A stretch of 62,544 nucleotides of DNA, the filler included, from Nemertoderma westbladi (lineage: Eukaryota > Animalia > Xenacoelomorpha), in the NCBI GenBank assembly GCA_032718475.1. It is 3 parts of 3 records of this genome, joined end to end, with 100 filler letters (N's around TTAATTAATTAA, not from the genome) between each part and the next. Parts side by side here need not be neighbours in the genome. Positions count along the whole stretch, not along the records: positions 1 to 25,644 come from JAUCBJ010008865.1; 2 more parts are not named here. One strand, 5' to 3'. The notes beneath the pieces were generated by a model. That model had not been told where the DNA came from, did not search any database, and was given only the letters and a program-made list of their open reading frames with translations. Below are positions 1,916-54,381 of the stretch, in pieces; position 1 is the stretch's first letter, and each line of letters opens with the position of its first letter. The translations under genes and the position numbers were made by a program.

Positions 1916-1927
1916 TATATCCTTTAA
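1916..1927 (-). promoter_or_regulatory. Non-tRNA primer-binding site of copy A (putative self-priming site)
   Basis: TATATCCTTTAA abuts the LTR; its exact reverse complement TTAAAGGATATA is at 2704-2715 in the same LTR; no TGG. Confidence 0.75.
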
Positions 1928-3157: not shown

Positions 3158-4885
3158 TCGAGTGTGGCTCCCGTTTTATAACAGATACGGAGTCGCGCTA
3201 CGCGATGGTGGAGCTCGAGTTGCTCGCCATCGCCTGGGCCACCCACAAATGCTGCCAATATACCTTGGGGGCCTCCCTCACTTCAAACTTGTGGTGGACC
3301 ACCAGCCGCTGTTGTCGATCCTGGACCCCAGACTATCGACACCACAGACAACACGAGGATCCAGCGGTTGAAATTCAAACTGTCGTCATATGTATTTACA
3401 ACCGTATGGAGGAAGGGGAAGGAACACCGCATCCTCAACACGTTGTCCCGATCCCCAGTGGACGACCCGACCTCCGATGATCTCGTCGATGACGGGGACA
3501 TGGGCCACTATCTACACGCTGTGACGTCACAGGCGGCCGACATCATACTGGAGAACTCCGACTCGGCGGAAGACAACCCCAACCTCCTCCTCCGCACATT
3601 GGAAACGACGGCACAGAGTGACCCCGACTACATCACCCTCCTCGACGCCATTCAGGCTGGGTTCCCGCCACGAGTCCAACCCTACTGGTCCATCTGGGAC
3701 GAACTCTCAGCCGACCACGACCTGGTGCTGTATGGACAGCGAATCGTGTTCCCGCGGGCTGCACAATGGGAAACACTGGCTCGCCTCCACGCCGCCCACC
3801 AGGGAGTCGAAAAGACTCGGCGGCATGCCCGCCAGACAGTCTACTGGCCCAGGCTAACTAACGACATCCGGACTATTGTCGCCTCATGCGAGCCGTGCAT
3901 AACATGCCGGGCCAGCCTCGCCAAGGAGCCACTCCTACATGACTGCGAGGCCAACACGGCCGTTCTAGGAGATCGCAGGTGATCTTTTCGAACTCAATTG
4001 CAAACACTACCTCGCCACCGCAGACCGCTACTCGGGGTGGCCCGAGGTATATGGGTACAGTAGCTACCCCACGGCCGCCTCCACAGCCGCACACATCTGG
4101 GACATCTTCACCCGGTTCGGTGTCCCCACGCATTTCACTTCTGACGGTGGACCACAGTTCTCAGGAAAGTACTTTACGGATTCCCTAAGCATCTGGGGAG
4201 TCAAGCCTATCACATCCTCCCCAGTTTACCCACAGAATAACGGCCTTGCGGAGTCCACTGTCAAGGCGACTAAGGCATTACTAACTAAGACAGGGGGGAA
4301 ACTGGACTCATCGTCATTCCAGGAGGGACTCCTGGAACTTCGCAACTTCCCCCGCGCCCGCGGAAAGTCGCCGGCTGAGATCCTGTTCGGTCACCCGGTA
4401 CGCACTCGGGTGCCTACACATAGCCGAGTTTTCCTTGCCGACCACCAGATGACCCGCACGGAGCTCGACCAGGCAGTGCCCTCGCTCCTAAAATCCCAGA
4501 CAGCCAGATACAATCGTGGCGCGCGACCCCTACCCCGCTTAGCGGTAAGGGCACCTGTGCGACGTTCAGAACCCCACATCGAAACGTTGGGACCGCACCG
4601 GGGTCATTGTGGAATCAAATCCCAACCGGAAGTACAGCGTTCGGACGCCTTCCGGTCAGTGCCTCACCCGCAACCGCCGCCACCTCATCCAGGACGCGGC
4701 CACTGGCATCCACCTCGGCTACAGCGCCGCCACGCCCCGTCCAATGCTACAGAAGGGCGTTCACTGGGCTGACGAACAAGCCAGTGCGTCTCCCGATCGG
4801 CCACGCCGTTCCTACCCATGCCTCCGATGGCAACCACGCAATAGACTATGATAGTTTGTGGATTGTGGGTGCACCAACAAACTAG
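3158..4885 (+). pseudogene. pol: Ty3/Gypsy (Mag-like) pol 3' fragment: RNase H and integrase, frameshifted
   Basis: ECGSRFITDTESRYAMVELELLAIAWA (RNase H); LHAAHQGVEKT...YWP...CEPC (integrase HHCC); SDGGPQFS and YPQNNGLAES (DDE core), spread over several frames. Confidence 0.9.
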
Positions 4886-6035: not shown

Positions 6036-6881
6036 TTTACCAATATAATTAAATTATATCCTGCAAGCTGCAACCTTATTTTAACTAATAACCCTGCAAC
6101 CATAGAGTTCGCTAAATAAACTTTACCATCTTCAGCAGGGTGGAAATATCTGTAATTGAATGTTTACAGCTGTTAATTGTTAAGGAACACATTGCATTGG
6201 CAAGTCTACGAGGGGTATCAATTTTGTTTCGCTCAGTATTAGTGATTAGGTCATGGCTCAATTTGCGGTCTGCATTCTGGAGTCTGTATATACATAGAAG
6301 GACATGAAGTACGAGCCTATTGCTTTTAATTCTAATTTGTTGGACTGAAACAGAAATAGGCCTACAGTAGTATACTACTACTGTAATATTATATCACTGC
6401 TGCACTGTAGTATTATAGTGTGGTATACCATACTGATAGGCCTACATGTGACGGGATTTGAGTTGGCGAAGATCCCGACCGGTGTGTGTGTTTAAGTCTT
6501 GGGAAATACGCGTCGCCGCGTCCGCTTGGCTACTGAAAGGCTGTTGCAGTTCTAAAAGGACGGAGGCCGAATTAGTAACTGAGTTTTATAGTTGCAGTTG
6601 TTCGTAAATGTCAGATTATTAATATAGCACAATCTGATTACAATAATATCACGCGGTCAACGACGATGGTTAAAAACCGTGTGACTTCTACACTTCTACA
6701 TAGCCAACTAAAAGGCACAATTAATATGAGTAAACGGTTATATCATAATTACACACAGTAAACTCCTTGCTACTTTGGCCTAGCCAATGAATGCGCGCTT
6801 AATTGATGGTAATTCGCCCCACCATTGGCTGATCTATCTTTCCTGGGCCAATATGCTAGCTTCTGCCCTGAGATGAGCTGG

Positions 6882-8051
6882 TGTTCGCGCTTTTAAGACC
6901 TTTGGCAGTTTAACCCGCCAAATCTATATGTCTTTTAGGTTATAAATCGACTTTAGCCTATGATAAGTATTTGACACAAATAAATCCAACATTAGCCGAA
7001 GCCAGTCTATGCGCGACCATTCACCCGCTGGATATACCCGGGAGACTGGATTCGGATGCTTTAATTTGATTGCGGTGCAGGCCTACCGTACTATTCGATT
7101 GATCGTTAATATATAATCTCTGACAAATATTATTCACTTTCGGGAAATATTAGCAGTTCCTTTAGGACGTGGCGCTCTATCTATATAAACAGAGCTATGG
7201 CTTACACTAAACACAACGGAATGGATTATAAGTTACACATAAGGCGCATTCTTTAGGAGATGCTTTGTTAAGCGGACAAGCACATACAGACTATTGCACA
7301 CCGCTGCACACTGAATTGCCGATAGTCACTGATTTTAATCATATATAAAGAGAACAGCAACCGACATTTGTAGGGCCTATAAAATAGCATTCAATTCACT
7401 ACAAACCACGATAATATAAGTCGCAATTGCTATATGTAGCCAGTCTCTCTAACCTTAGTGTATCAAGAAGATCGGGGTTTCTGATCGTTTATCGTTATTC
7501 TCCAAATAACAATATGTAAATGAATGATACATTTAATAACAAACAGCAAATAGCAGTAAATAATGTGCAATACGTACCGTACCGTTATGTGTTCTTAGTG
7601 TCTCGTACCGCTGTACCGGTAACAGTTATGTGTTCTTATAATTAAAGCCGTTCTAATGTTGGAATAATTCAGAATAATTCCATAGCCGTTGTTCATGGCA
7701 TCAGGAAAACCAACACACTGAACCCTGTGAGCTGTTGCAGGTAGCTTTCAACACAAAGAGGAAAAGCTCTCATTGGCAGAGTTCCAGTTTCTATAAGTTC
7801 CATGAATGTCTAAATGCCAAACCTCCCTAGCCTTTGCAGCCCATAGCCAACACAAGGCTAAATCGCTCTGATTGGTCGATCATTGTTCTGATTGGTTAAT
7901 CGAACAGAACAAAGAGACCATGCGTACAGCAAATCAGCCAACCAGCGGGCGGATTGTGCCACTAGAAGCAACAGTTTAGAGGATTTGAGCGAATGGGGGA
8001 AAACTGGATTACAAATGGAAAAGACCAGTTATATCCCCAAAAGCTTTTACA
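6882..8051 (-). repeat. 3' LTR of copy B
   Basis: Direct repeat of 16986-18155 with about 8 substitutions counted by eye. Confidence 0.97.
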
Positions 8052-8059
8052 CCGCTCCC
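8052..8059 (-). promoter_or_regulatory. Short polypurine tract of copy B
   Basis: Minus strand reads GGGAGCGG immediately before the TGTAAAAG start of the 3' LTR. Confidence 0.6.
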
Positions 8060-8129
8060 AGAAAATGGGATTTAATTATATAAAATATAAAAAATCACAG
8101 TTTCTAAAATATAAAAATACTCTAAACAG

Positions 8130-9650
8130 TTAGTCTTTCTTGCGCGGACGGCGTTTACGCAGTTTCTTGAGGCTAGCAAGAGTCCTTTTCTCTTTAGGGC
8201 GAGCCACTTTACTAGGAGGGCTATAACTCCTGGGTGAAGGGTGCAATACAATTGCATCAGAAGGTTTAAGGTTACGGTCGGTGTCTCGTCCATTTCGATA
8301 TGCTTCTCCTCGAGCTGATTTTCCTCCGCTTGTCGTTGGATACGTTCGTCCAAAACTCTCGCAGAGAATAGGGTTGTCTAAGTTCGATATCTTCTTAGAG
8401 ATTCTGGATTTCCCAATCGAACTGAGATAAAGCCAATTCGTTTATCGCTTGGACTTGCTGTTACAACTTACGTTTATCTGAACAAACGCAGGTTTCCTTT
8501 CTGATCTTTGTAGAATAGCGTTTAACTCGTTTCGTACAACGCTCTCCTCCACCTTGATGAAGGGTTGTATCGCGTTAAACTGGGACGACTATACGGTTGA
8601 ATGGCGATATTAGGTGTCCGCGTCCCAATACGGCTAAGTAAGATGGGCTAATATCTAGGAAGCCCACAACCGGGGTGCCACCGACTAATTGTTCAGGTAA
8701 CACTAGATCTTTGAACAGTGAGTACAGCTCGGGAGGATCCGTCATACTAATAGGATCAAGAGTCTGAGGTCTCACTAGGGAATGAGGAGGTCTGATCGAG
8801 TATTCCGGAACTCTGATCATTGGTTTATTTAAGGATCGTCTGAGTCGAACGAGCGTAGGTGATACGTCAAACAAATTTCGCTCGAAACTCCCGTAAGTAT
8901 AGCGAGTAAAACCGTGTTTAATACAACGTCTCCACGGATGTTTAGGTCTTTCCGTTTGTTGGTTGGGTCTAGGGCATCCATCGCAACAACACCAAAGACG
9001 CACGTCTTGTAGGGGAAACTCGAGTGATCTTTCTCCAGTTCACAATACTCCTCCATCCGTTCGAAGCTATCCGGTGCAACAGGCAGCGGTCGATCAGCGG
9101 TAAGATACATCATAGTGGAATAGAGCCGTTTGAGTTCTACCATGCGGTCATGATGTATACCTTGAGGATATCGAGTTTCTAGATTCTGTTGACTGGTAAT
9201 ATCGAGATAGGTTTCTCTCAAGAATTCCAGGTATTTGGTGAAGTCGCTGCGTTTATCCGGCTCTTCAACATCTGCACTTTCGAGTCGGTTTCGAATAGAA
9301 TTTTCGTGTTCGAGTCTCAGTTTATCGTTCCGCTTCCGCTGGGTATGATATTTAAATAAAACCATTTCCCTTTTGGGGTCTATATCGTTCGTATCGTGTA
9401 GGTCGATAGGATGACCAGTAGTTAAGAAGTCCATATACGTACCATTACGATGCGTATAGCGAGCGGTGAATTTTCTACAGTCCAACCCACGCGCAAGTTG
9501 CTTCCGGGACATTGGCGGTTAGATATAACGACCATCGTCCTCCGTAGTAGTTGGACCAGCGTCGCCGCGTATCAAGCTATCAACAAACACTTGTAAAGGT
9601 AGAGTATATCGCTCCCTGATACCAAGATCATCTTCTATCAACTCAATCAT
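8130..9650 (-). pseudogene. Orphan second ORF of copy B in the env position, broken into in-frame and overlapping pieces
   Basis: ATG at 9650 opens 43 codons, then in-frame TAA (9519-9521), then the 227-aa ORF 9512-8829, overlapping ORF 9003-8575 and a basic tail (...KKLRKRRPRKKD*); conserved in copy C; no recognisable domain, signal peptide or TM segment. Confidence 0.55.
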
Positions 9651-11288
9651 ATCTGCTATATAAGTTTATCCATATTATAATGAGTTTATATTTAGGCGAG
9701 CGGGCGTCGCTGCCTACCCCTCTCTGCCCCCGGACAGTGTAAGATCCTCAGCGCCGATATACCGTCGTCGCTGTGCTTTTGCCAACGATGTAGCTACACA
9801 ATGACAACGATAACCGGCACAAGTCACTCCACTGTCCGTCCCAAAGGCTTAGATGTACTTCAGGTTCTTACTGGAGAGTTAGGGCTACTTTCACAATTGC
9901 GACTCGCTACTGTAAACACACCTTAGTAGTAACATTCACCTACAAACGCACAAATTCCACGTAACTGTCACAAATGGTACACATTCTATCACACATTCGG
10001 GTCATTTGTCCGTTAGTCAAGTGCCTTCCAGAATGTCACGTTGTTCTTATGTATCCTTGGATACTAGCGGTGTGCTATTTATTCCGTATGCTATTCAATG
10101 AGCAAGCTTTTTATTGTTCTGTTAACTCGCTTCTAATTCTAGCGTGGTTGTTGCTATGGTGACATTATGGAAAGCTAGCGGTAGAATTAGGGTAATTCCC
10201 ATGCATACAGATCTGGGATGCTATTTAATAGTAAGTCTTTGATGGTCAATATCATCTTTATATATGATTTTATGAATTTTATCGGCTATTGACTCTATAT
10301 TGGAGATTCTCGCACACTAATACACTTAAGAGGTGAATCTCCGCTCCCATGATCTATTAATTAATGGAATTTTGGGAATATTATAAATTGTATAAAATAA
10401 CAATTTATCAAATTCATTAAAAGATGAATTTAAATTTATTCCCGTAATTTTATTATTTAATATTAAATAGACACAATTTTATTCCAGAACAAGTCTGTGG
10501 ACTGGGATCCTTGATTCTAGGAATTGAACTTTTTAAGAATATCGGTAAGTGCTACGATATCTTATTAGACTAGAATTTTAAAGGATCTAAAATTTGACAG
10601 ATTTTATAAATATTAATAATTAATATTTAGGATGGGCACCAGTTTATTCCAGAACAAGTCTGGGGACATTAACCACTGATTCTAGAATTTTGTCTTTCAA
10701 GTATATCGGTGGGTGCCGCGATATCTTAATCGACTAGAATTGCAGATGGTCAAAGGGTTTAACAGATTTATTTTGCGTTTTACGCTACTGTTAAAGGGAC
10801 ATCACGCTACTATATGTATTATTTAATATACGGTATGAGAGCAATATCGCACGAAGCAATGTCAGTGTGAAGAGGCAAGTCGTTTCCAAGGTCTACCCAG
10901 AGCTTGGTTTAGCCGAGACACGAGGATCTGAACTTTGCATTCCTAATACTCTGCCTACCAATAATACTTAAATATAGTAGGAGCTTTATTGTACTTTAAT
11001 AAGTACGGATATTTCATCTTACTGTAGTCACGTATTTATAATATGATACGGACAGTAAGGAAAGAGAAAAAGAATTATTGCTCGCCGTCGCACTAAATAT
11101 AATATATAAGTAATTAAGTAATAAACACTAATATATTGCACTAATCTACTAAATAATCGCTAAATAACATTCTACTAAATAAAATTAAAGAAAACGATTA
11201 TAATAAAATTACATAATAATACATACATAATATAAAATAATAAAAATAAATATAAAATAATATAGTCACACACCCACTCCGTATGTTG

Positions 11289-14200
11289 TTACGTTATGGA
11301 GTCCCTAGATATTTGTTGGATTAGGGAGGTGGTCGTGGGAAGAGTATCTTGCCTTCCATAGTTTCCGGACAGTTTTCGGTCTCTTTCCAGTAAACATAAA
11401 CGACCAGCTGGGCGATTGAGTGGTTGTGTTACTTTCTCCGCTCCCTTGGCCTGTCTAATCTTCGCCGGGTTAAGATGGGGAGGCCATTCATCTTCTTTAC
11501 TTAGGAAGTCGGGTTCACCTAACCAGTCTGGAGTATCTGTCAGTTCTTGAGGAGTTGCTCCTCTGGAGGCGATGTCGGCTAGATTGATCGTCTCGGGGCA
11601 ATGTCTCCATTGATCTACATTGGAGTTGATGTCGTCATTATCTGAGGAGTATGGTGTTCCCTCAGTTGGGTCGTCAACTTCACTGCTCTCCACTTCCCGT
11701 TCACTTAATTGATATACCTGTTCTTTTGGTAATCTTTCCATGAGAGTTCTACGGGAAGGGCCAGTAAAGTACCAACCCACTCTAGTTCTTCCCGCATAGA
11801 CTTGTAGTGGTTGCGGTTGAGCAGGCCGTTTCTCCAATGTCTCGAGCGCTTCATGCGCATTTTGACCGATGAGTATTTGGACTCCAGGGTAATCGGTGTT
11901 GAATCTAGGTATTTCAAGCTGCTGGGTGAAATCGTCCTCATCCCAGTTATAAGGTTCCACTTGGCTGGTCGCGAAGTTCTTTATCGCTACCATTTTTACT
12001 GACCTTATGCTGTGTTCTCCTAGTTCATCCTGGGGGGTGGACAACGCGCCTACATAATAATCCGCTATTACGGTAGATTTCCAAACCTGCATAATTCCTG
12101 ACATGTTTAGCTTAGTTCGGAACTTGGGTTGTCCAGCAAAGATGTCTTCGGCTAGTTCTTTGTCGATGAATGTTCCTGTGCTACCGGAGTCAAGGAGGGC
12201 ATTCACTATATAACTCCTTGTAGGTCCGTGGACCCTTAACTGTACTACAGGAAATTCTCGGATTCCTACATTGGAAGTTGGTGCTTTCCAAGATGGTTGT
12301 CTGTCAGAAGTAGTTAGGGGGAGCTCGCTGTCGGTGTCCTTTTCATATGTAAGTGCTCGATACACTGCGGTATTTGTCAGGTAACAGGATTCGTTTTTGT
12401 CGGAGAATTCGTCCGTATAGAATCCTTCCATCTCAGAATATTGGTCAGTGTCGTTCACATCACTGAATTGGACATGTAGTTCGGACTCACTTACCTGACT
12501 CGGGCTGTTTCGTTCGAATTCCGTGCGCAACAAGATATGATGTTTTGCGCCGCACTTTGCACACCTTGCGTCGGAGTAACAGGTTCGCCGTTGGTGTCCT
12601 CGTCTGAGGCAATTATAACACAACCGCTTATCCCACATGACTTCCCGTCTCTCCGTTAATGATTTCTTCAGGAATTCATCACACATATTCAAACGGTGGG
12701 GCCCGTCGCACAGCACACATTTTGGTTTGATGTTACTTACCTTACTTTGAGTAACGTTGTGCACACTCGTTCTTTCTTCGGGCTTTCTTACTTGAATTCT
12801 CTTAGGAGACGTAGGAGGAGTTTTTCTTACCTTTTCTCTCCTGTCATTGGTTCGAGACTTGAATTTACTTACGTCCTTAGTCACTTTGTTGTCATAGTAA
12901 GATCTTTCAGTGTCTTTCCCGCTGTCTTCCTCTTGAGAAGCCTGGCTTTCGCCGTCGTCTGTATAACCCACTGGTATTACCCTTCTCCTAGAAACAGGTT
13001 TCTCACTTACATTACTTTCCGATGTCTTCTCTCTGGACTGCTTTATGAGCTGTAATCTCACTTCGCCATCCAAGAATGACATGAGATCAGCCATGGTAGG
13101 GTCTCGTTGTTGTTGTTCCATCATATATAACACTTTCTTGTCCCAGCGTGTACCTACTCCACCCTTCGGTAAAGTAGAAGCCACTGCTCTAATAACCATA
13201 GCACTCTGATACTCATGAGACTTACCTAGCCAATCTAATTGTCTGCAGATCTCCTGAATCTCATCAGAAAACTCTATAATCCCGCTGCTAATAAACTTTC
13301 GGGGCGCTACCAACTTTGCATACAAATACCCAGCTATGTTATTCCTATTACCATACCTGATGTTTAGTGTATCCCAAACTTGTCTTAATCCGTCTGGATG
13401 TCCAATAAACTTTAACGCCATTAACTTGGGAGATCCTTCCAAGCACTCGATGAGGAATCTAAGTTTCTCTCCATTAGATAGTACAGAGTTCTGTATGTTA
13501 TCTATATAATATTCATTAAAAGGTAACCATTTCATCTCATCTCCATTGAACTTGACGATCTCTCCCACCTTTACCGCTTGACGGGCTTCGGTTCTAGCCA
13601 TTTGACGCGTAAAACTTTCTTGGGCCATTGTGTTATTTAATATCGAGTTAACGGTATATAAATTTCTCAGATTATTATCAAGTCTATATGGGATATCATT
13701 GTCAACAGGTTTATAATTACCCTTAATAGGGTTTACTATAGGAGTTTCTACTTCGCTAGCAGTATAGATGCGTGTAGGCTCCACACCTTGCGCATGAGAT
13801 ACTTCAGACCTAACGGGTTGACATATTGTCACAGAGAGTGGTGATATACCCTTTTGTAAATTTACTAATTTATCGTGTTCTAGTGCGATACTTCTCTAAC
13901 TCTAACCTACTTTCCTTTACAGTTCCCTTTAACTGTTGAACAGTCCCTTCTAACTCTCGGACCTGTTGGGAGGAGCGCACTCGATTCTCCTCCATCTTTC
14001 CGAGGAGAATATCCATCCCCCGCCGTCTCTCGTCTACCCAATCAACCGCCGAAGCGGGATCCGCCAACGTCGTAGCGGGCAGACGAGGGACTACGGGTGA
14101 TATATCCTTTATATTTCGCTCGGAGTCCAGGACCGACACTGTTTCAGGGGCTGTTCCTCTAGGCACAGATAATTTGGTGCTGTGTAAAGGGAATTTAAAG

Positions 14201-14796
14201 GTAGGTTCTGGGAGTACAGGTGTCTCTATCACCGAAGGGGTGATTTCAAGAACAGGCCTAATTATTTCAGGCTCATCTACTATAGTAGGGAGTCTTTCTA
14301 TTTTAATTATTTGGTCTGTGGGTTCTGTACTACCTATGTCTACACTATCCAGTTGCATTCTCGCTTCAGGAGGTAACGTCTGCTTGAGCATCCGTCTACG
14401 TCCGCTTGAACGAGATTTATTACTTCTACCCTCGGGATTTCTCATATCACCTTCATCGGAGGAGGCAAATCCCTGTCTTCTGGAGGTGTATCGACTCAGT
14501 AACCGCATCTGAGCTGCATCCATAGCTGTCCTTTGCTTCTCCAAGCACTCCCGCCTCGCCCGAAGTTTCTCCAGCTCTAGTTGGGTGGTCTCTTCAGATG
14601 CTCTTAGTTCTGCTTCTGCCACTGCTATCCTTCTTTCCGCTTCTGCCGCTGCCTCTTTCCTATCCGCTTCTGCCGCTGCTACTTTTCTTTCCGCTTCTTT
14701 TCTGTCTTCTATCCTTTCAAGACACTGTCCAAGTCGAAGACTCATTCTAACACCTTTCAAAAGACTATCTGACAGTGCCCGTTTTGTGTCAGACAT
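11289..14796 (-). CDS. gag-pro: BEL/Pao Gag-protease polyprotein with RNase H C-terminal stub; one frameshift near 13890
   Basis: Coiled-coil N-terminus; DUF1759-like KFNGDEMKWLPF...EKLRFLIECLEG...LNIRYGN; three zinc knuckles CVLCDGPHRLNMC, CYNCLRRGHQRRTC, CAKCGAKHHILL(H/R); protease LLDSGS...ILIG; QWRHCP..NLADIASRG...WP; 10-bp deletion relative to copy C. Confidence 0.92.
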
Positions 14797-16133
14797 ATTT
14801 GATTGTACAGTTGAATGCCTACTGCTATATTACAGTTAAAGCAAGTCTAGTAATTCAGTATCAACTGTTAGCCTAGTAATTAAATTACCGATACTGTTAC
14901 TCAGTTTAACGTGATATATATACAATGTATCAGAATACCGGTATACACTTATAGTATATATATAAGTACAAGGACAGGTTAGGTTTGGTTACAGAATACC
15001 GGTATAATTTCAGCACAAATATATATAAATATATAATAGGCCTATCGTGAATACCGGTATACAGCTTACACTTATAGTATATATAAGTATAATTATGAAC
15101 TAGAATTAATTACAGAATACCGGTATAATTTCAGCCTAAATTTATATATATATAATAGGCCTATTGTAAATACCGGTATGTCAATTATTTTAGAATAATT
15201 GAATTTCTGAATTTTAAGGGTTACTTGGTTACTTTAACTTACTTTATTACCGTTATTTAAGCAGTAGTCCAACTGATATTGAGACCTAATTGTTGTATGG
15301 CAGGCCTACTATTTATAAATCGTTTGAGTTGATTTATAATATATATATACCCGTTTAATGGGTTTTTGTCAATATTTGAAATAAATGTTATTATTTCTGG
15401 GGGGAGTCACTACACAGAAGCTGTGCGCTCTCAGTGAAGTGCTACTTGTTGGACACTAAAACAAATAATTCTAATTTACCTAAGTTACTTAATACTACAA
15501 ATTACGTACAATTCGGGTTGAGATTACAATCTCTAAATAAACACAAAAATTTACAAGTATGAATTTTAAGGGTAATTTTACAAGAAGTCTACTAACCAGC
15601 CTAACAAAGGGTTAGAATATCTGGTTATTACAACAGACAGGATACTACGGTATTTGAAAATAATAAGTAGTAGTAAATATACTGCGTTGTCCAGATAGGA
15701 AAATACCACCGTCTGACGACTTATAGCCGTATCGCTATAAGTACTACGTTATGTATCACGGAGTGTTCCTACCCAGAAGTTAATTACCGCGGTCTACCAG
15801 AACCAACGTGCCTATTAACCACTTTACAACACAAATATACTGCCTACACGCTAATTACCTTCGGAAAGCACTGTACACTAAACCCTAAATTAGGTACAAG
15901 TACTTGTACGACAAATAATTAGTAGTTAAAAATACTTGAACAGCTAAAAGAACCACGGTATCTGCCGGAGTGACCAAAGCATAAAATCTCCAGTCTTTAC
16001 CTACGCCAAGCAGCCCTGATGTAGTACCGGGGTTAGTTTAACTATAACGGTATGTATAACAAGCACAATTACTGTAGGAATAAACTTGGGGATATGAATG
16101 TTGCGAATAATCGCATAAACTCTGAATAATAAA

Positions 16134-16710
16134 TATTACGCTACGCGTACAGACTACTCAAACAAAATGCAGACCAAATACTGACAGACTACTATCAAGC
16201 CTAAACAAACTACGGTATATGCAGACTCCGAAATGGTTAGTTAGTATGCGTTCTAACCTAGTAGTACGACTTATTCTTTCAGAGGGGGTTTACCTCACAG
16301 CACTGGAAGCCCCTACATTCCCAACTGGCACTTTATCGGACATACACTCTACACACACCGAAATTTCCTCAGGCCTAACAACAGCCAGACAACTATCCAG
16401 CCTACAAATTATCTAAATAAGAATTATACGCTACCTGTACAGACTACACAAACAAAGTACAGACCAAACGATGGCAGACTACTATCAAGCCTAAATAAAC
16501 TACAGTATATGCAGACTCCGAAATGATTAGTTAGTATGCGTTCTAACCTAGTAGTACGACTTATTCTTTCAAAGGGGGTTTACCTCACAGCACTTGAAGC
16601 CCATACGTTCCTAACTAGCACTTTATCGGACAGATGCTCTACACACACTGCAATCCGTTCAGACTTCACAACAGTCAGACAACTATCCAGCCTACAAATT
16701 ATCTGTACAA
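16134..16710 (-). repeat. Tandem ~290-bp duplication in the 5' leader (also ~1070-1645 and ~33068-33645)
   Basis: Two units, each starting ATTACGCTAC/TTATACGCTAC and containing GCAGACTCCGAAATG...GACTTATTCTTT...ATCGGACA...CAGCCTACAAAT. Confidence 0.9.
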
Positions 16711-16974
16711 TCTGAGCAGGCTTACACGTCTTCTGCTCAATCTTAACCTACAAATAAATAAAATCGACAGAAATAAGTAAACTATACAAAGGAATGAGGG
16801 GTGATCAATCCCTAATCCCCTAGCAGCCTACAATATACAATATCTCAATCGAAATAGTACTGCTGTACCCGTACTGTAAGTAAGTACCGGTCCGGATGAT
16901 CAGGCAGTCAGGCCTACTGGTTACCGGTCGACCGGTACTAACAACTTGATTGCTTACGCCGCAATCAAGAAGCT

Positions 16975-16985
16975 ATAACTGTTAC
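16975..16985 (-). promoter_or_regulatory. Non-tRNA primer-binding site of copy B (putative self-priming site)
   Basis: ATAACTGTTAC abuts the 5' LTR; exact complement GTAACAGTTAT at 17723-17733 (and 7619-7629). Confidence 0.75.
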
Positions 16986-18155
16986 TGTTCGCGCTTTTAA
17001 GACCTTTGGCAGTTTAACCCGCCAAATCTATATGTCTTTTAGGTTATAAATCGACTTTAGCCTATGACAAGTATTTGACACAAATAAATCCAACATTAGC
17101 CGAAGCCAGTCTATGCGCGACCATTCACCCGCTGGATATACCCGGGAGACTGGATTCGGATGCTTTAATTTGATTGCGGTGCAGGCCTACCGTACTATTC
17201 GATTGATCGTTAATATATAATCTCTGACAAATATTATTCACTTTCGGGAAATATTAGCAGTTCCTTTAGGACGTGGCGCTCTATCTATATAAACAGAGCT
17301 ATGGCTTACACTAAACACAACGGAATGGATTATAAGTTACACATAAGGCGCATTCTTTAGGAGATGCTTTGTTACGCGGACAAGCACATACAGACTATTG
17401 CACACCGCTGCACACTGAATTGCCGATAGTCACTGATTTTAATCATATATAAAGAGAATAGCAACCGACATTTGTAGGGCCTATAAAATAGCATTCAATT
17501 CACTACAAACCACGATAATATAAGTCGCAATTGCTATATGTAGCCGGTCTCTCTAACCTTAGTGTATCAAGAAGATCGGGGTTTCTGATCGTTTATCGTT
17601 ATTCTCCAAATAACAATATGTAAACGAATGATACATTTAATAACAAACAGCAAATAGCAGTAAATAATGTGCAATACGTACCGTACCGTTATGTGTTCTT
17701 AGTGTCTCGTACCGCTGTACCGGTAACAGTTATGTGTTCTTATAATTAAAGCCGTTCTAATGTTGGAATAATTCAGAATAATTCCATAGCCGATGTTCAT
17801 GGCATCAGGAAAACCAACACACTGAACCCTGTGAGCTGTTGCAGGTAGCTTTCAACACAAAGAGGAAAAGCTCTCATTGGCAGAGTTCCAGTTTCTATAA
17901 GTTCCATGAATGTCTAAATGCCAAACCTCCCTAGCCTTTGCAGCCCATAGCCAACACAAGGCTAAATCGCTCTGATTGGTCGATCATTGTTCTGATTGGT
18001 TAATCGAACAGAACAAAGAGGCCATGCGTACAGCAAATCAGCCAACCAGCGGGCGGATTGTGCCACTAGAAGCAACAGTTTAGAGGATTTGAGCGAATGG
18101 GGGAAAACTGGATTACAAATGGAAAAGGCCAGTTATATCCCCAAAAGCTTTTACA
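16986..18155 (-). repeat. 5' LTR of copy B
   Basis: Direct repeat of 6882-8051; several CCAAT boxes (plus-strand ATTGG) in the right-hand, U3-like part. Confidence 0.97.
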
Positions 18156-20045
18156 GCTGGCATCTCTCCCTCGGGCTGGCAATTGCCAGGTGTGTCCGTA
18201 TGTGATATTGCTAATATCACATAGCCGAACATAATTGGTAAATCGCCACTTTCGACATTTTCCTCTGGGCGGTGCAGCGAATTGGATCTGCTAACAATCC
18301 CCCCATGCTATCTTCCCGGTGAGAAGATAGCATCAACCTTTAGTGCGTTCCAATTCCGCTGGAATCCAATCTAATATTGGATGTGGGGTGGAATTCTTTT
18401 CTCGGGACCAGCTTTCCAGACTGGCTTGTCTGGGTCTGTTTTCACTACCCACCCTTGGTACATTTGCGAGCTAAGCAGTACCGGTACCAAGGCATCTGGC
18501 GTCTCTGTTTAGACGATTGCCCTTTCTCCTCACTCAATTTTTATCCCGGACTCTATCGTACATTATCCCCTCGTTCAATAGTCCCATAGGACTCATCCTC
18601 CACACTGCTCGCCCTCACACTTGGATCTCGCACTCTTTTCTTTCCCCCAAACTTTCATACCTCCCCTCCCATGCTCCTCTAATACTCAACCCCTTTTGCT
18701 CTCACTCTCCATACTCCTGTTGGGTTCCCACGGTCTTCTACACGTATACGTTGTATATATTAAGTGAGTCCCTTGTCTCATCCTCTTGTTCCAGTCAATT
18801 AATCCCCAGTCCCAGTAGCTAATTGGAAAAAGGTTGTATCTGACAATAGTACGTATATTATAGATCTATGTATAGCAGTGAATGATTACGTACGTCCATA
18901 TTAATTGCACTTATATGAGTTATTGCACTTATATGATTTATTGCACTTATATGAGTTATTTGTACATTTAAGTCCTAGCATGGCCTTCCAGGCACATTAA
19001 CACACGCCCGTATCCAGTTCTAGAGTGCTCCTCCCGTACCCTCCGGAAACAATCTCATCTCCTTGCCCCTATCATCGTCCTGTCTCGGGCGTTTTCTTAT
19101 ATCTGCCTCTCTACCTGCTGCCTGCTACCTACTTCCTCTAGTCAGTCAGTGGTGGTCCATGGTCAAAATTTTTTGTTGGGCCAGACCGAAAACTTTATGA
19201 ATACAGTGGACTCAGTAATGATTCAGTCAGATTGGTGTTAAGGGGGGGGGGGGGGGGGGGGGTTATTGTCGAAGAAAGAAAAATAGTTTTATCTAAATTA
19301 TAACATTAAGTATAAGTTATAATTCATATGGTATTTTCGTATTGCAAAAATAAGATTGTAAGTATTTTCATGAAGTAACCTATGTTATTGATATATTGTT
19401 TATTTGTTTGGTTAAAAAGCCCAAAGCCCGCCACTTTAACCTGCTCCGTTAATTAAGTAATCTAGTTTAGTTTACTGTTTTGGTTAGAAAACACCGCCAC
19501 TGTAACCTGCTCCTTTTGCCACAGGTACGCATACTGTATGAATGATAACTGAACATTATTATCTAAATTGAAATTCAGAACACTTGTTGCTTTAAATATA
19601 GTTATTATCTAAATTGAAATTCAGAACACTTGTTGCTTTAAATATAGTAAGTTTTGTTTTATGTGTAAGTTCTAAGTTGGCCTTTAATCCTACAGTCCTA
19701 CTGTACGGTACGTAGAACGTAGACATGAACAGATGAAATTGCATAACTCATTTTGTTTGAAGTTGATGTCATTTGTTCTTTACCTGTATATAGGCCTACG
19801 TCTTAATAAATTTCTAGGCCCTCAATTGTCAGGACGTACCAGTCGGCTGCACAGCCTTTCTTTTAGTACAGTAGTACGCCTTGCCTATTACCTAGCACTG
19901 TAGCACCCACAGTCCTACACTGTACACCTACTGACCTAGCTTATTTCATTAGGCCTATATTAAATCTTCATTCAGTTAATACTGTAATATCCATTGCTTC
20001 TCGAACCGGGAGGACCTGAACTCTTTAAGCGACAACAATCAGATA

Positions 20046-22598
20046 ATGGAACGGTTTACTTGTGAGTCGGGCGACGCACTGCTAATTACCAAATCTATGT
20101 TTACGAACATCTGTTCGGAAAATGGTCCGTTTGTGCAGACGTTTCTCGAAGAATACCTGGACGCGAACTCGAGTTTTCTGGACTATTATGTCGTTAATAA
20201 ATGTACGGCAGGTCATATTACCGAGTGGCTGCTGCGTTCACTCACCTCTGGGTCTAACAACGCCGCCACCACCTCGGATTTGTCTCACAACACGACCCAA
20301 TCACAATCACCGGCCACTGTCCCGACTGCCGGGTACCACGAGACCAGTATGCCACAGTGTCCATTGACGGCATCGGCGTCGCCACCTACGTACCACCACA
20401 ATTACAATCCTGCAACAGGAAAGCATCCGCAATCTCGATACTCGAATCAACCCACGCCGCCTACCGAACCCTCCTCTATGCAGCCTGTGGTCAGGTTACA
20501 ACGTCTCAACCAGACAGACCTCCCGGGAGAACAAATACAAATGGATCCCAAACTGTGTCCGATAGACACCAAACCAAACCTCATTGAATATGAATCGAGT
20601 AATAATACAGGCAGTTCAACTTTATTATCTTATAACAACATATCCTCCTATACCCCCGCAGTAACCACAACCAACTCAAACCATTATTCTACCCAACCTC
20701 TATCAGCAGACCAGTCAGATGTTCCGGTAATCCCACGCATTAAGACGGAAGACGAACTGGAATATAAACCCGACCTAAACGAGGTTGGTGATGGCTTGGG
20801 CGATTTATTCTCGCCTATAGATGTAGCATATGGATACAGTACAGACACTAATGCTTCGACCACCCACTCAACTCAGCAGAATCTCCTCCCGGACTCTAAC
20901 TCCCTGTCTCACAACACCGCTCATGGTCCCTTAACAGACACTAACTCTTCACCAACCCTCACTACTCAGTCTCTAGACGACTTCAACTTAAACCTTCCCA
21001 ACACCTACAACCTCCTGTTGGCCTCTAAATCGACAGTTTCCAGTATCGGTGAGTTACTATCAGACTATGATTTGTATTGTAAACATCGTTTAGTCCGTAT
21101 TGCCCCCAAACTGGTCAGAGTAATTGTTTATGTTTATTTATAGTGACAGTTATGATATTTATTTAATTATTTATATATTTAATTAAATTCAATCTAGAGA
21201 CTGAAGCCTTTCTCACCAAATAACAAATATATTATACGAAGCCTATTTCCCAAACTCAACTCGCTGAATTGCAAACAATACTCCAGAATAGAGACATCCC
21301 ATGTTTAGCTTTGTCAGAGAAATGGCTGGACTCTATTATCCAGAGGAAGAAATATAAATACAAGGGATTCCATTCTGTGTCAGAGAAATGGCTGGCCTCT
21401 ATTATCCAGATGAAGAAATACAAATACAAGGGAATTCATTCTGCGTCGCACAAATTATTGCGATTACTCTGGAAAGAAAACAAAATCGTGTGCCGAGTAT
21501 ACCACCGGTCAGCCGGTAGCCGTTGATACTACTGTACCTGTACGCCTATACTGTGTGTTAAGTAAGTAGGCCTAAATTTTCCACCCACGACGTTCATTCC
21601 AGCCACCCCGACTATTGGCGTAATGAAATTTTTCCACCCACCCCGACTATTCGGGACTCCAGAGTACATATCTGAATCGCTGTCTTATAAATAGGTCCTA
21701 ACTATTGCGTCTATTACTTAAAATATTCCGTTTTTCCGTAATCAGTGCTGCAATATTTTCTAAGACCCCTTTAAAGGTTATAATATTTCAGTCAGTGTCA
21801 GTAATTAAGGTGCTTATTTTATATGTTATGTTTTTTTAGTAATTAAAGTATCAAACCTCACACGTATTAATTTACAATGTCTAATCGAAAATCGTATTTA
21901 TTTACATATAAGAATTTAAAACTACAGTAATTAGCTATTGACTAATTATTGCATTAATTACTTCAATTATTCTCGTTTCCAATATTCTCCATTTTTAATC
22001 CACTCCATTACTTTCTCTAGGCGACCAATCACAACCATCCCCTGATGATTCAGACATGCTCACTTCCGACGATGACGTAACACCCGGAAGTATGAATAGT
22101 CCCTTCGACCAACCTGGTCCCTCTGGTATTCAACCGCAGGACATTATGAAAGGAAGCCGCTCCAATGAGAAGCCCTTCAGCTGTGATACTTGTGATAAAG
22201 CGTTCGCAAAGAACAGCGACCTAATTAGACACCAACGGATCCACACCGGCGAGCGTCCTTACCAATGCGGCATCTGTTACAAACGATTCTCTCAACTAGG
22301 CACCCTAACCTCGCACAAGCGAACTCATAGTGGGGAGAAACCGTATAACTGCAACCTGTGTGGGAAACGTTTCTCTCAACTAATTTCCCTAACTACGCAC
22401 ATGCGAACTCATTACGGAGAGTGTCCTTACGTGTGCGACACGTGTGGGAAGGGATTTACAGCGAGCGGTACTCTAACACGCCACAAGAGATTACATACAG
22501 GGGAACGACCGTTTAGCTGCGATACTTGCGGGAAATGTTTCTCCCACCGACATCATGTAAAGCGCCACAAATGTATCCGCAGTGGGGAGACTCGGTAA
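20046..22598 (+). CDS. C2H2 zinc-finger protein gene, two exons (20046-21048, 22021-22598), about 526 aa
   Basis: G|GTGAGT donor at 21049 and pyrimidine-rich CTTTCTCTAG acceptor at 22020 join in phase; S/T/P-rich middle; four C2H2 fingers with TGERPY/SGEKPY linkers plus a final C2HC finger; AATAAA at 22755. Confidence 0.85.
21225..21530 (+). pseudogene. Decayed CR1/L2-like APE endonuclease fragment in the intron, with a ~60-bp tandem duplication
   Basis: RSLFPKL...[25 protein letters not shown] resembles the NIRSL...K...EL...DI.ALSETWL start of LINE ORF2. Confidence 0.45.
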
Positions 22599-25644: not shown

Positions 25645-25744
25645 NNNNNNNNNNNNNNNNNNNNNNNNNNNNNNNNNNNNNNNNNNNNTTAATTAATTAA
25701 NNNNNNNNNNNNNNNNNNNNNNNNNNNNNNNNNNNNNNNNNNNN
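25645..25744. other. Artificial contig spacer
   Basis: 44 N + TTAATTAATTAA (stops in all six frames) + 44 N. Confidence 0.97.
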
Positions 25745-26619
25745 AGGGAATGAGGAGGTCTGATCGAGTATTCCGGAACTCTGATCATTGGTTTATTTAA
25801 GGATCGTCTGAGTCGAACGAGCGTAGGTGATACGTCAAACAAATTTCGCTCGAAACTCCCGTAAGTATAGCGAGTAAAACCGTGTTTAATACAACGTCTC
25901 CACGGATGTTTAGGTCTTTCCGTTTGTTGGTTGGGTCTAGGGCATCCATCGCAACAACACCAAAGACGCACGTCTTGTAGGGGAAACTCGAGTGATCTTT
26001 CTCCAGTTCACAATACTCCTCCATCCGTTCGAAGCTATCCGGTGCAACAGGCAGCGGTCGATCAGCGGTAAGATACATCACAGTGGAATAGAGCCGTTTG
26101 AGTTCTACCATGCGGTCATGATGTATACTTGGAGGATATCGAGTTTCTAGATTCTGTTGACTGGTAATATTGAGATATGTTTCTCTCAAGAATTCCAGAT
26201 ATTTTGGTGAAGTCGCTGCGTTTATCCGGCTCTTCAACATCTTCACTTTCGAGTCGGTTTCGAATAGAATTTTCGTGTTCGAGTCTCAGTTTATCGTTCC
26301 GCTTCCGCTGGGTATGATATTTAAATAAAACCATTTCCCTTTTGGTGTCTATATCGTTCGTATCGTGTAGGTCGATAGGATGACCAGTAGTTAAGAAGTC
26401 CATATACATACCATTACGATGCGTATAGCGAGCGGTAAATTTTCTACAGTCCAACCCACGCGCAAGTTGCTCCCGGGAGATTGGCGGTTAGATATAACGA
26501 CCATCGTCCTCCGTAGTAGTTGGACCAGCGTCGCCGCGTATCAAGCTATCAACAAACGCTTGTAAAGGTAGAGTATATCGCTCCCTGATACCAAGATCAT
26601 CATCTATCAACTCAATCAT
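25745..26619 (-). pseudogene. Orphan second ORF of copy C (partial, with an extra frameshift near 26205)
   Basis: Near-identical to 8777-9650, including the in-frame TAA (26488-26490). Confidence 0.55.
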
Positions 26620-28270
26620 ATCTGCTATATAAGTTTATCCATATTATAATGAGTTTATATTTAGGCGAGCGGGCGTCGCTGCCTACCCCTCTCTGCCCCC
26701 GGACAGTGCGAGATCCTCAGCGCTGGTGTACTTTCGCCGATGTGCCTATCGCCAACGTCGTAGCTGCACAACGACTACAACAACCAGCACGAGCCACTCC
26801 ACCGTCCGTCCCAAAGGCTTAGATATACTTCAGGTTCTTACTGGAGAGTTAGGGTTACTTTCACAATTGCGACTCGCTACTGTAAACACACCTTAGTAGT
26901 AACATTCACCTACAAACGCACAAATTCCACGTAACTGTCACAAATGGTACACATTCTATCACACATTCGGGTCATTTGTCCGTTAGTCAAGTGCCTTCCA
27001 GAATGTCACGTTGTTATTATGTATCCTTGGATTCTAGCGGTGTGCTATTTATTCCGTATGCTATTCAATGAGCAAGCTTTTTATTGTTCTGTTAACTCGC
27101 TTCTAATTCTAGCGTGGTTGTTGCCATGGTGACATTATGGAAAGCTAGCGGTAGAATTAGGGTAATTCTCATGCATACAGATCTGGGATGCTATTTAATA
27201 GTAATTCTTTAATGGTCCAATATCTCGTTTATATATGATTTTATAAATTTTATCGGCTATTGACTCATACATGGGAGATTCTCACACTCTAACACACTTA
27301 ATAGGATGAATCTCCGCTCCCGTGATCTATTAATTAATGGGATTTTGGGAATGTTATAAATTGCACAGAATGACAATTTATTAAGTTCATTAAAATATGA
27401 ATTTAAATTTATTCCCTGAAATTTTATTATTTGATAGTACAATTGACACAATTTGATTCCAGAGCAGGTCTGGGGACATAGGATCCTTAATTCTATGAAA
27501 ATTGTCTTTTAAGAGTATCGGTAAGTGCTACGATATCTTAATCGACTAGAATTGTTAAAGGATTTTACAGATTTTGATTTATAGATTTGTAAATATTAAA
27601 TAATTAATATTTGAGATGGGCACCAATTTATTCCAGAACTTGTCTGGGGACGTTAACCACTGATTCTAGAATTTTGTCTTTCAAGTATATCGGTGGGTGC
27701 CGCGATATCTTAATCGACTAGAATTGCAGATGGTCAAAGGGTTTAACAGATTTATTTTGCGTTTTACGCTACTGTTAAAGGGACATCACGCTACTATATG
27801 TATTATTTAATATACGGTATGAGAGCAATATCGCACGAAGCAATGTCAGTGTGAAGAGGCAAGTCGTTTCCAAGGTCTACCCAGAGCTTGGTTTAGCCGA
27901 GACACGAGGATCTGAACTTTGCATTCCTAATACTCTGCTTACCAATAATACTTAAATATAGTAGGAGCTTTATTGTACTTTAATAAGTACGGATATTTCA
28001 TCTTACTGTAGTCACATATTTATAATATGATACGGACAGTAAGGAAAGAGAAAATAATTATTTCTCGCCGTCGCACTAAATATAATATACATAATTAACT
28101 AATAAACGCGAATATATTGCACTAATCTACTAAATAATCGCTAAAATAACATTCTACTAAATAAAATTAAAGAAAACGATTATAATAAAATTACATAATA
28201 ATACATACATAATATAAAATAATAAAAAACAAATATAAATAATATAGTCACACACCCGCTCCATATGTTG

Positions 28271-31200
28271 TTACGTTATGGAGTCCCTAGATATTTGTCG
28301 GATTAGGGAAGTGGTCGTGGGAAGAGTATCTTGCCTTCCATAGTTTCCGGACAGTTTTCGGTCTCTTTCCGGTAAACATAAACGACCAGCTGGGCGATTG
28401 AGTGGTTGTGTTACTTTCTCCGCTCCCTTGGCCTGTCTAATCTTCACCGGGGTAAGATGAGGAGGCCATTCATCTTCTTTACTTAGGAAGTCGGGTCCAC
28501 CTAACCGGTCTGGAGTATCTGTAAGTTCTTGAGGAGTTGCTCCTCTGGAAGTGATGTCGGCTAGATTGATCGTCTCGGGGCAATGTCTCCATTGATCTAC
28601 ATTGGAGTTGATGTCGTCATTATCTGAGGAGTATGGTGTTCCCTCTGTTGGGTCGTCAACTTCACTGCTCTCCACTTCCCGTTCACTTAATTGATATACC
28701 TGTTCTTTTGGTAATCTTTCCATAAGAGTTCTACGGGAAGGGCCAGTAAAGTACCAACCCACTCTAGTTCTTCCCACATAAGCTTGTAGTGGTTGCGGTT
28801 GAGCGGGCCGTTTCTCCAATGTCTCGAGCGCTTCTTGCGCGTTTTGACCGATGAGTATTTGCACTCCAGGGTAATCGTTGTTGAATCTAGGTATTTCCAG
28901 CTGCTGGGTGAAATCGTCCTCATCCCAGTTATAAGGTTCCACTTGGGTGGTAGCGAAGTTCTTTATCGCCACCATTTTTACTGACCTTATACTATGTTCT
29001 CCTAGTTCATCCTGGGGGGTGGACAATGCACCTACATAATAATCCGCGATTACTGTAGATTTCCAAACCTGCATAATTCCTGACATGTTTAGCTTAGTTC
29101 GGAACTTGGGTTGTCCAGCAAAGATGTCTTCGGCTAGTTCTTTGTCGATGAATGTTCCTGTACTACCGGAGTCAAGGAGGGCGTTCACTACATAACTCCT
29201 TTTAGGTCCGTGGACCCTTACCTGTACTACAGGAAATTCTCGGATTCCTACATTGGAAGATGGCGCTTTCCAAGATGGTTGTCGATCAGAAGTAGTTAGA
29301 GTGAGGTCGCTGTCTGTATCCTTTTCATACGTGAGTGCTCGATACACTGCGGTATTTATTAAGCAACAGGATTCGTTTTCGTCTGAGAATTCGTCCGTAT
29401 AGAATCCTTCCATTTCAGAAATTTGGTCGGAGAATTCGTCCGTATAGAATCCTTCCATCTCAGAACTTTGGTCAGTGTCGTTCACATCACTGAATTGGAC
29501 ATGTAGTTTGGACTCACTTACCTGACTCGGGCTGTTTCTTTCGAATTCGGTGTGCAACAAAATATGATGTTTCGCGCCGCACTTCGCACACCTTGCGTCG
29601 GAGTAACAGGTTCGCCGTTGGTGTCCTCGTCTGAGACAATTATAACACAACCGCTTATCCCACATGACTTCACGTCTATCCTTTAATGATTTCTTTAGGA
29701 ATTTATCACACATATTCAAACGGTGGGGCCCGTCGCACAACACACATTTGGGCTTGATGTTACTTACTTTAACATGTGCTGTGTGGTGCACGCTCATTCT
29801 TTCCTCAGGCTTTCTCACCTGAATTCTCTTGGGAGACGTAGGAGGAGTTTTTCTTACCTGTTCTCTCCTGTCATTGGTTCGAGACTTGAATTTACTTACC
29901 TGGTCTTTAGGCGTTTTATTGACATAATAAGATCTTTCAGTGTCTTTCCCGCTATCCTCTCCTTGAGAAGTCTGGCTTTCGCCGTCGTCTGTATAACACA
30001 CTGGTGTTACCCTTCTCCTAGAGACGGGTTTCTCACTTACCTTGTTTTCCGGTGTCTTCTCTCTGGACTGCCTTAGGAGCTGTAATTTCACTTCTCCATC
30101 TAAGAATGACATGAGATCAGCCATGGTAGGGTCTCGTTGTTGTTGTTCCATCATATATAACACTTTCTTGTCCCAGCGTGTACCTACTCCACCCTTGGGC
30201 AAAGTAGATGCTAAGGCTCCTACAACCATAGAATTCTGGTATTCATGAGACTTACCTAACCAATCTAGTTGTCTACAGATCTCCTGAATCTCGTCGGAAA
30301 ACTCTATATTCCCGCTGCTAAGAAACTTTCGGGGCGCCGTTAATTTTGCATACAAATACCTAGCTATGTTATTCCTATTACCATACCTGATGTTTAGTGT
30401 ATCCCAAACTTGTCTTAATCCGTCTGGATGTCCAATAAACTTTAACGCCATCAACTTGGGAGATCCTTCCAAGCACTCGATGAGGAATCTAAGTTTCTCT
30501 CCGTTAGATAGCACAGAATTCTGTATGTTATCTTTGTAATATTCATTAAAAGGTAACCATTTCATCTCATCTCCATTAAACTTGACGATCTCTCCAACCT
30601 TTACCGCTTGACGGGCTTCGGTTCTAGCCATTTGACGCGTAAAACTTTCTTGAGCCATCGTATTATTGAATATAGAATTATCGGTATATAAATTTCTCGG
30701 ATTATGATCAGGTCTATATGGAATATTATTATCAACAGGTTTATAATTACCCTGAATAGGGTTTACTATAGGAGTTTCTACTTCACTAGCAGTATAGATG
30801 CGTGTAGGCTCCACACCTTGCGCATGAAATACTTCAGACCTAACAGGTTGACACATTGTTACAGAGGGTGGTGGTATACCCTTTTGTAAATTTACTAACT
30901 TATCGCGTTCTGACGCGATACTCTGCTGCACTTCTTGCAACGCTAACCTACCCTCTCTTACTGCTCCCTTTAACTGCTGAACAGTCCCTTCCAACTCCCG
31001 GACCTGCTGGGCGGAACATTTACAATGTTCCCTCAGCTGCCCGAGCAGGAGACCCATCTCCCGTCGTCCCTCAGCTACCCACTCAACCGCCGAAGCGGGA
31101 GTCGCCAACGTAGTAGCGGGCAAGCGAGAGACGACGGGCGATAAATTCCTGATATCTCGCTCGGCGTCCAGGATGGGTTCGGACTCGGGAACAGTCTTAC

Positions 31201-33906: not shown

Positions 33907-33917
33907 ATAACTGTTAC
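33907..33917 (-). promoter_or_regulatory. Non-tRNA primer-binding site of copy C
   Basis: ATAACTGTTAC abuts the LTR; complement GTAACAGTTAT at 34676-34686. Confidence 0.75.
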
Positions 33918-36910: not shown

Positions 36911-36913
36911 TAT

Positions 36914-54281: not shown

Positions 54282-54381
54282 NNNNNNNNNNNNNNNNNNN
54301 NNNNNNNNNNNNNNNNNNNNNNNNNTTAATTAATTAANNNNNNNNNNNNNNNNNNNNNNNNNNNNNNNNNNNNNNNNNNNN
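54282..54381. other. Artificial contig spacer
   Basis: 44 N + TTAATTAATTAA + 44 N. Confidence 0.97.

Follow-up and report, generated by a model that had tools for sequence, protein, structure and literature searches.

A putative self-primer site and a second covarying complement in the LTRs of a BEL/Pao-derived element from Nemertoderma westbladi

Self-priming of reverse transcription has been reported for Tf1/sushi elements, Tj1 and Tcn1 and predicted for the Copia lineage TAR, according to excerpts of the respective papers (PMC6317226, PMC7175516, PMC4600332, PMC6934838). Tf1 and Tf2 of Schizosaccharomyces pombe, Tj1 of S. japonicus, other Tf1/sushi elements and Tcn1 carry no tRNA-type primer-binding site (PBS); what the excerpts describe is a PBS that pairs with the element's own LTR. 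The Tf1 primer is given there as 11 nt long (PMC7175516). In Tf1-type self-priming, the complement of the PBS is the first 11 nt of the mRNA. In the plant Ty1/copia TAR lineage (Houba, Osr-1), the excerpted text predicts self-priming from PBS-LTR complementarity and mentions no masking partner or splice-built primer (PMC6317226).

The Belpaoviridae are described by the ICTV as tRNA-primed with an 18-nt PBS for tRNA-Arg or tRNA-Gly, and BEL/Pao replication is called poorly understood (PMC8742986). A first-pass annotation of the sequence studied here had supposed that BEL/Pao self-priming was undescribed. We likewise found no report of it in the literature searched, as far as the accessible text goes, and Repbase, GyDB and the papers on Suzu and the C. 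elegans Cer elements could hold earlier remarks. Word searches in the accessible text of PMC3118150, PMC554778, PMC6238403 and PMC2774666 returned no PBS or priming passage, and the accessible parts of PMC3601003, PMC3286476 and PMC13524379 added nothing on BEL/Pao self-priming.

The element family described here likely works like Tf1 while being a BEL/Pao derivative with an added, predicted masking helix. It resembles the Tf1 group, as excerpted, in the 11-nt length, and a cut following base 11 as well as a stem-loop next to the PBS may be further points in common (PMC7175516, PMC4600332). For the Tf1-type U5-IR-like stem-loop, the predicted helices here are conserved but mostly invariant. 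Unlike the Tf1 group of Ty3/gypsy, it belongs to another superfamily, has a loop of 750-790 nt, lacks an RT of its own and carries a second covarying LTR complement, predicted to mask the 3′ copy of the site and not found in the Tf1 excerpts. Its 5′ end is a predicted one. With TAR it shares the prediction from PBS-LTR complementarity, although TAR is a Copia lineage of plants. It agrees with the ICTV Belpaoviridae in the DUF1759 gag, the triple Cys-His boxes, the LLDSG...LIG protease, the TG...CA LTRs of up to 1.2 kb and the 5-bp duplication, but departs from them in its 11-nt self-complementary PBS and in the absence of RT, most of RNase H and integrase.

A gag-protease element of BEL/Pao type

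The window, the whole 62,544-nt stretch analysed from assembly GCA_032718475.1, contains three minus-strand copies (A, B and C) of one LTR family (Table 1). Copies A and B lie on one contig and copy C on another. The N-linkers between the parts are at 25645-25744 and 54282-54381, each with a 12-nt stop spacer. Copy B shows the structural features of BEL/Pao elements, that is, TG...CA LTRs, a target-site duplication and a polypurine tract. Its two LTRs are 99.3% identical with 8 differences, and it is a recent insertion.

Table 1. Positions of the element copies and their features along the window
Feature	Positions	Strand	Remarks
Copy A, truncated at window edge	1-3157	minus	
A PBS	1917-1927	minus	
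A 5′ LTR	1928-3157	minus	
A decoy	2258-2310	minus	
A site	2704-2714	minus	
Copy B, complete element	6882-18155	minus	5-bp target-site duplication at 6877-6881 and 18156-18160
B 3′ LTR	6882-8051	minus	Second copy of site at 7619-7629
B polypurine tract	8052-8059	minus	Short, before 3′ LTR
B extra 3′ reading frame	8832-9518	minus	229 codons; in C as well (25800-26487)
B gag-protease region	11289-14796	minus	DUF1759, three Cys-His boxes, LLDSG protease, short late-pol remnant; broken near 13870-13895
B PBS	16975-16985	minus	11 nt, abuts 5′ LTR, non-TGG
B 5′ LTR	16986-18155	minus	1170 bp, TG...CA ends
B predicted structured U5 domain	16989-17120	minus	Adjoins PBS; RNA folding
B candidate polyadenylation signal ATTAAA	17164-17169	minus	Matching position in A and C too
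B internal second complement (decoy)	17320-17375	minus	Folding and covariation
B decoy part	17320-17323	minus	Pairs with -22 to -19
B decoy part	17329-17336	minus	Pairs with -13 to -6
B decoy part	17339-17346	minus	Pairs with -4 to +4
B decoy part	17370-17375	minus	Pairs with +6 to +11
B candidate splice donor	17552-17560	minus	First intron base 17557; A 2491, C 34495
B predicted self-primer site, +1 to +11	17723-17733	minus	Followed by CG in all three copies
B conserved AT-rich, TATA-like block, -17 to -7	17740-17750	minus	Predicted to pair with the decoy
B CCAAT box at -147	17876-17880	minus	Matching position in A and C
Copy C, truncated at N-linker	25745-35133	minus	
C gag-protease frame, open	28271-31765	minus	
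C PBS	33907-33917	minus	
C 5′ LTR	33918-35133	minus	
C decoy	34249-34306	minus	
C site	34676-34686	minus	

The coding region bears out the BEL/Pao type proposed in the first-pass annotation. Its gag matches DUF1759 (PF03564; E 8e-11 and 1e-10), three Cys-His boxes lie at residues 674-738 of the copy C frame, and the translated protease has both the LLDxG and LIG motifs and aligns to a BEL polyprotein. DUF1759, the triple Cys-His boxes and the protease are BEL/Pao hallmarks in the excerpt of PMC554778, whose box pattern fits that of C. Protein searches with the element returned distant BEL/Pao relatives only; the top match was discounted, its score being owed to three tandem repeats. The gag and protease are thus BEL/Pao-type, and the Ty3/gypsy chromovirus gag-pol of Tf1/sushi members was not found.

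When B and C were searched in six frames with a profile of 36 BEL polyproteins, matches were confined to profile positions 107-694 and 1240-1297 out of 1810. Hence RT and integrase are absent in B and C. The BEL/Pao order of RT, RNase H and integrase is not present, most of RNase H missing too, so priming would need a helper element. Judged by its sequence, the family is a non-autonomous BEL/Pao-derived LTR element with gag and protease but without RT or integrase.

Between B and C, the gag-protease frame (11289-13895 and 28271-31765) has 40, 37 and 101 differences at codon positions 1, 2 and 3; over 869 codons, 87 of the single changes are synonymous and 56 non-synonymous. By this substitution pattern, the frame is under purifying selection despite belonging to a family without RT. 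B and C have nearly the same extra 3′ frame (DNA identity about 98%), for which Pfam, the protein search and Atlas gave no homologue.

The leader ahead of gag is 2.9 kb long with 15 ATGs and holds a tandem duplication of about 292 nt (16121-16704) in A, B and C. R-U5 is 97.4% identical and U3 only 80.5% identical between B and C (16986-18155 and 33918-35133), as would be expected from U3 exchange between subfamilies with a common primer. A plus-strand region with a Gypsy-type integrase (3182-4772) either adjoins or encloses copy A. Elsewhere in the window are a likely host C2H2 zinc-finger gene of two exons (19980-21143 and 21999-22598), a long short-tandem-repeat array open in all six frames (42275-45790), and reverse-transcriptase fragments of other families (36858-37682, 53365-54333 and 57940-59470).

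The primer-binding site and two complements in the LTR

In every copy the PBS begins directly at the LTR end (offset 0), and in none does it start with TGG, as the first-pass annotation had observed; lacking that start, it does not fit an 18-nt PBS for a tRNA 3′ end. It is the exact 11-nt complement of a homologous LTR site, which lies upstream by 748 nt in B, 769 nt in C and 787 nt in A. An 11-nt PBS that adjoins the 5′ LTR and is complementary to the element's own LTR is the Tf1-type arrangement. All six stretches listed by that annotation are present as described, those of B and C being the PBS and site positions of Table 1. For A it gave a 12-nt pair (1916-1927 with 2704-2715), of which the 11-nt homologous core stands and the 12th pair is not shared with B and C.

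When the LTRs were dinucleotide-shuffled 20,000 times each, such an exact complement arose 14 times for A, 5 times for B and 13 times for C. Of 1,490 leader 11-mers tested, the one at offset 0 alone finds a complement within the LTR in copies B and C; in A there are five (offsets 0, 1, 130, 268 and 269).

The two partners changed together, as had been claimed. RNAalifold returned the PBS helix unprompted from the three copies, with 11 of 11 pairs kept and four of them altered on both sides between A and B/C. Three of these four are transversion pairs, impassable via a G-U step. B and C have the same core, so the copies provide two independent sequence states, not three. The own pairs have energies of -10.3 and -11.7 kcal/mol, whereas pairing A with B yields +0.9 and -0.5 kcal/mol.

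Copies A and B agree at 95% over the final 40 nt of the LTR, but at only 7 of 11 positions in the PBS. A primer copied into the PBS would make the PBS track the LTR site while the flank stays fixed; we infer this from standard reverse transcription as outlined in an excerpt of PMC7175516.

The exact complement ends abruptly at 11 nt. In all copies, +1 is an A after a pyrimidine and +12 of the following CG is unpaired. Additional pairing between the sequence upstream of the site and the leader is not above chance (206-798 of 2,000 shuffles). Folded from +1 with the PBS alone, the helix forms at 0.65-1.0 per pair in all three copies. Unconstrained folds from +1 vary with the length of leader included: with 60-120 nt, its mean probability is 0.96-0.98 for A, 0.17-0.88 for B and 0-0.03 for C.

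R-U5 is predicted to be strongly structured, with further covarying helices besides the PBS helix. The U5 domain of B has a predicted invariant 6-bp closing helix (17115-17120 with 16989-16994) and a predicted 8-bp hairpin at 17005-17026. A U5-leader helix of B and C was set aside for its poor alignment in A.

The PBS/site pair noted in the first-pass annotation is real, yet its inventory of complements missed a second covarying one inside the LTR. This decoy amounts to the PBS in two pieces, with a small hairpin between them and an extension that pairs with U3. When upstream sequence is included, -22 to +11 folds onto one homologous R stretch in all three copies, with most pairs at 0.67-1.0. 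In RNAalifold of the four LTRs, the decoy has four both-side changes, and a fifth, at +11, that hinges on the placement of one gap. Both halves in order were reached for A and B by 0 of 20,000 column-block shuffles and the halves singly by 19 and 75, with the halves and boundaries chosen after the folds were seen. The decoy duplex energy alone is not significant (17, 66 and 50 of 500 shuffles), and one of the 8 LTR differences of B breaks a decoy pair in its 3′ LTR.

Constrained folding compared the two partners for different RNA starts. For A, B and C in turn, the PBS-bound minus decoy-bound energy is -13.1, -15.3 and -17.1 kcal/mol for a start at +1, -8.7, -1.8 and -4.1 at -13, +1.2, +2.0 and -3.1 at -22, and +1.7, +7.1 and +2.9 at -40. 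The folding favours the decoy over the PBS once 22-40 nt of upstream sequence is included. By these energies, a transcript starting at the site would free its 5′ copy and mask the U3-carrying 3′ copy. They lend indirect support to the first-pass prediction of an RNA start at the site or slightly above it. Masking of the 3′ copy by the second complement is likely in this folding model.

As for the promoter, the first-pass annotation had placed CCAAT boxes upstream and seen no TATA near -30. Both are borne out, the CCAAT box standing at -147 in B and C and at -154 in A, and TATA near -30 missing from all three copies. That reading had missed the conserved TATA-like block, which is a good TATAAA at about -12 in A and a similar block in B and C. 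If functional, the block would set the start at about +18-20 and the site would be lost from the 5′ end. Its conservation may also come from its being one strand of the decoy helix, beside which it may have a promoter role. Inspection by eye showed no conserved downstream promoter element.

All copies have a candidate splice donor at corresponding positions, and by textbook donor frequencies it scores highest of the donors in the LTR of A. Contigs whose kind was guessed gave 614 pieces on 6700-18400, uninformative on the start site; contigs of this same guessed kind left 17648-18038 and 7482-7872 without cover and gave no joint inside the LTR. Exact LTR patterns had no match in metagenome or viral contigs, and protein scans of viral contigs gave 0 and 1 loci.

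Self-complementary sites in BEL/Pao relatives

Relatives were collected by a metagenome scan with a BEL alignment, taking the best 80 of 572 loci. The set came to 81 loci, of which 39 without a polyprotein start were left out and 42 examined. A 10-15-nt complement to the bases 0-3 nt past an LTR-end motif was found in 16 of the 42 loci (14 families), being reached by 0-6 of 100 shuffles at each. Six loci have a TGG-type PBS, and the other 20, mostly truncated, stayed unclassed. The view that the window lineage evolved self-priming independently may be too narrow, since these 16 other BEL/Pao loci have the same signature. The PBS differs among the 14 families, and each matches its own LTR.

Fourteen of the 16 loci have the complement only when the LTR is joined across a GT-AG junction, and two have it contiguous; donors were scored by textbook frequencies. 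A looser second pass on the 20 unclassed loci added L016 and L058 to the junction type (0 of 60 shuffles; the region of L058 was set by hand) and gave a contiguous complement in L002 (4 of 60). The complement of L018 in that pass was not significant (18 of 60). The non-TGG PBS of the relatives is 10-16 nt long and often starts with GT, and CG follows the site in 8 of the 14 families and in all three window copies. No splice-junction PBS complement in BEL/Pao was found in the literature searched.

A clear TATA is present in two of 16 usable rows (L012 and L042), with the site 124-133 nt below it. The primer there would thus be internal, about 100 nt inside the transcript, and by these sequences the site of the relatives probably lies within the transcript, not at the 5′ end.

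The window site is contiguous in all four LTRs, unlike the junction-only complement of the splice group. Contiguous complements are also present in L022, L002 and the 3′ LTR of L042, and the second exon of L057 begins with the same 8 nt as the B/C site end plus the next two bases. A decoy in these contiguous-type relatives (L022, L002 and L042) was not significant in most of six LTR regions (8-187 of 300 shuffles).

L042 has an intron acceptor in the LTR at one contig end and an intron-free LTR at the other (1-326 and 6694-7103). Read from its sequence, it is a natural case of an intron lost where the primer junction is predicted, the intron-free LTR carrying a contiguous PBS complement. In L068 (6650-6680 and 55-75) and L018 (195-225 and 447-470), the sequence upstream of the site can pair with the leader past the PBS. 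GT-AG intron-like segments occur also in LTRs near or within the TGG-type group (L056 5343-5735, L078 6609-6960 and L061 6716-7392).

In a midpoint-rooted FastTree Pol tree of 41 loci, one side with support 1.0 consists of the six TGG loci plus L061 and L073, both of which have a TGG PBS by eye. Every self-complementary locus lies on the opposite side. The window protein forms a long branch in gag-protease trees, with at most 24% identity. One such tree puts it outside the TGG group (96/92). A second, from which 8 further rows were dropped, has it outside the self-complementary group (SH-aLRT 99). An AU test did not reject its placement with the TGG group (p 0.34). Common origin of the window element and its self-complementary relatives is possible, and so is convergence.

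A proposed priming route and its alternatives

With a PBS that is non-tRNA and covarying, priming by the element's own RNA is probable, and the first-pass annotation had chosen it rightly as the likeliest mechanism. For the route, the best explanation, held with moderate confidence, is own-RNA priming from a start at or just above the site with the decoy masking the 3′ copy.

The transcript would start at, or at most about 13 nt upstream of, 17733 (A 2714, C 34686). Its 5′ end would fold back over 750-790 nt onto the PBS, and the RNase H of the helper element would cut between +11 and +12, ahead of the conserved CG. The RT of the helper would carry synthesis from the new 3′ end into U5, as happens in Tf1, and plus-strand synthesis would copy the primer into the PBS. 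At the 3′ LTR, the RNA would also have U3, and the decoy helix would grow from about 10 to about 26-30 bp. This lengthened helix would sequester the second site copy and spare R from cutting.

A start well upstream of the site, again with self-priming, is the alternative that survives best, and we consider it unlikely. Both site copies would then begin in the decoy helix, and the 5′ copy would be freed later by refolding with the Gag nucleocapsid or by splicing from the 17557 donor, which would remove the decoy. The position of this donor in all copies and its rank in A fit such a route, as do the internal, mostly splice-built primers of the relatives (14 of 16, with the two TATA-bearing loci) and the small energy gap with upstream sequence (-3 to +8 kcal/mol). 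A CCAAT box at about -150 would also suit a start near -60 to -90, given the usual spacing. Against it, the complement ends abruptly at 11 nt with no upstream pairing above chance, and priming by spliced RNA should lose the segment from daughter LTRs, whereas all four LTRs retain it.

Less probable still, the AT-rich block would be a true TATA with the start near +18-20, leaving the site only in the U3 of the 3′ LTR. There it would pair with the PBS and join the RNA ends, as pairing does in Ty1 and Ty3, the primer being cut from there or being something else. The block with its TATAAA in A is indeed kept in a U3 only 48% identical overall, but the decoy helix explains this conservation as well. 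With U3 present, moreover, the site is predicted in the decoy helix, not on the PBS, and a cut in U3 would detach R and leave that RNA no homology for strand transfer.

A purely structural role of the pairing in packaging, dimerisation or translation, with priming elsewhere or by another route, is very improbable. The highly structured R-U5 with its other covarying helices and the long, ATG-rich leader are compatible with such a role. Yet in all copies the helix stops right at the LTR border, its 3′ end facing U5; it keeps within 0-3 nt of an LTR-end motif in 16 relatives, and comes with no TGG-type PBS.

Priming by a host tRNA fragment or other small RNA, with an incidental LTR match, has a precedent in the half-tRNA primers of Copia lineages (excerpt of PMC6317226) and is the least credible of all, given a PBS in which sister subfamilies differ at 4 of 11 positions, with matching changes in the LTR, and which varies among 14 families that each match their own LTR, no tRNA gene in the window by ARAGORN, and no tRNA match in 15000-18300, where Rfam gave one sub-threshold match.

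Taking the window family and its relatives together, we tentatively suggest that a large part of BEL/Pao has abandoned tRNA priming and is self-primed, a reading that we hold at somewhat under an even chance. The difficulty of having two copies of the primer site would have been met in two ways: most families would build the primer only by splicing out an LTR intron, and the intron-free window family would hide the 3′ copy by a U3-dependent RNA switch.

The masking helix would be a concrete answer to how a self-priming RNA avoids cutting the primer copy in its 3′ R. If the suggestion is true, a mismatch between primer and PBS would isolate subfamilies from one another, and the splice-built primers of the relatives would link host splicing directly with the onset of reverse transcription. 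Self-priming would then extend to a third LTR superfamily, beyond Ty3/gypsy and one predicted Copia lineage, and would cover many animal elements left unexplained by PBS-based annotation.
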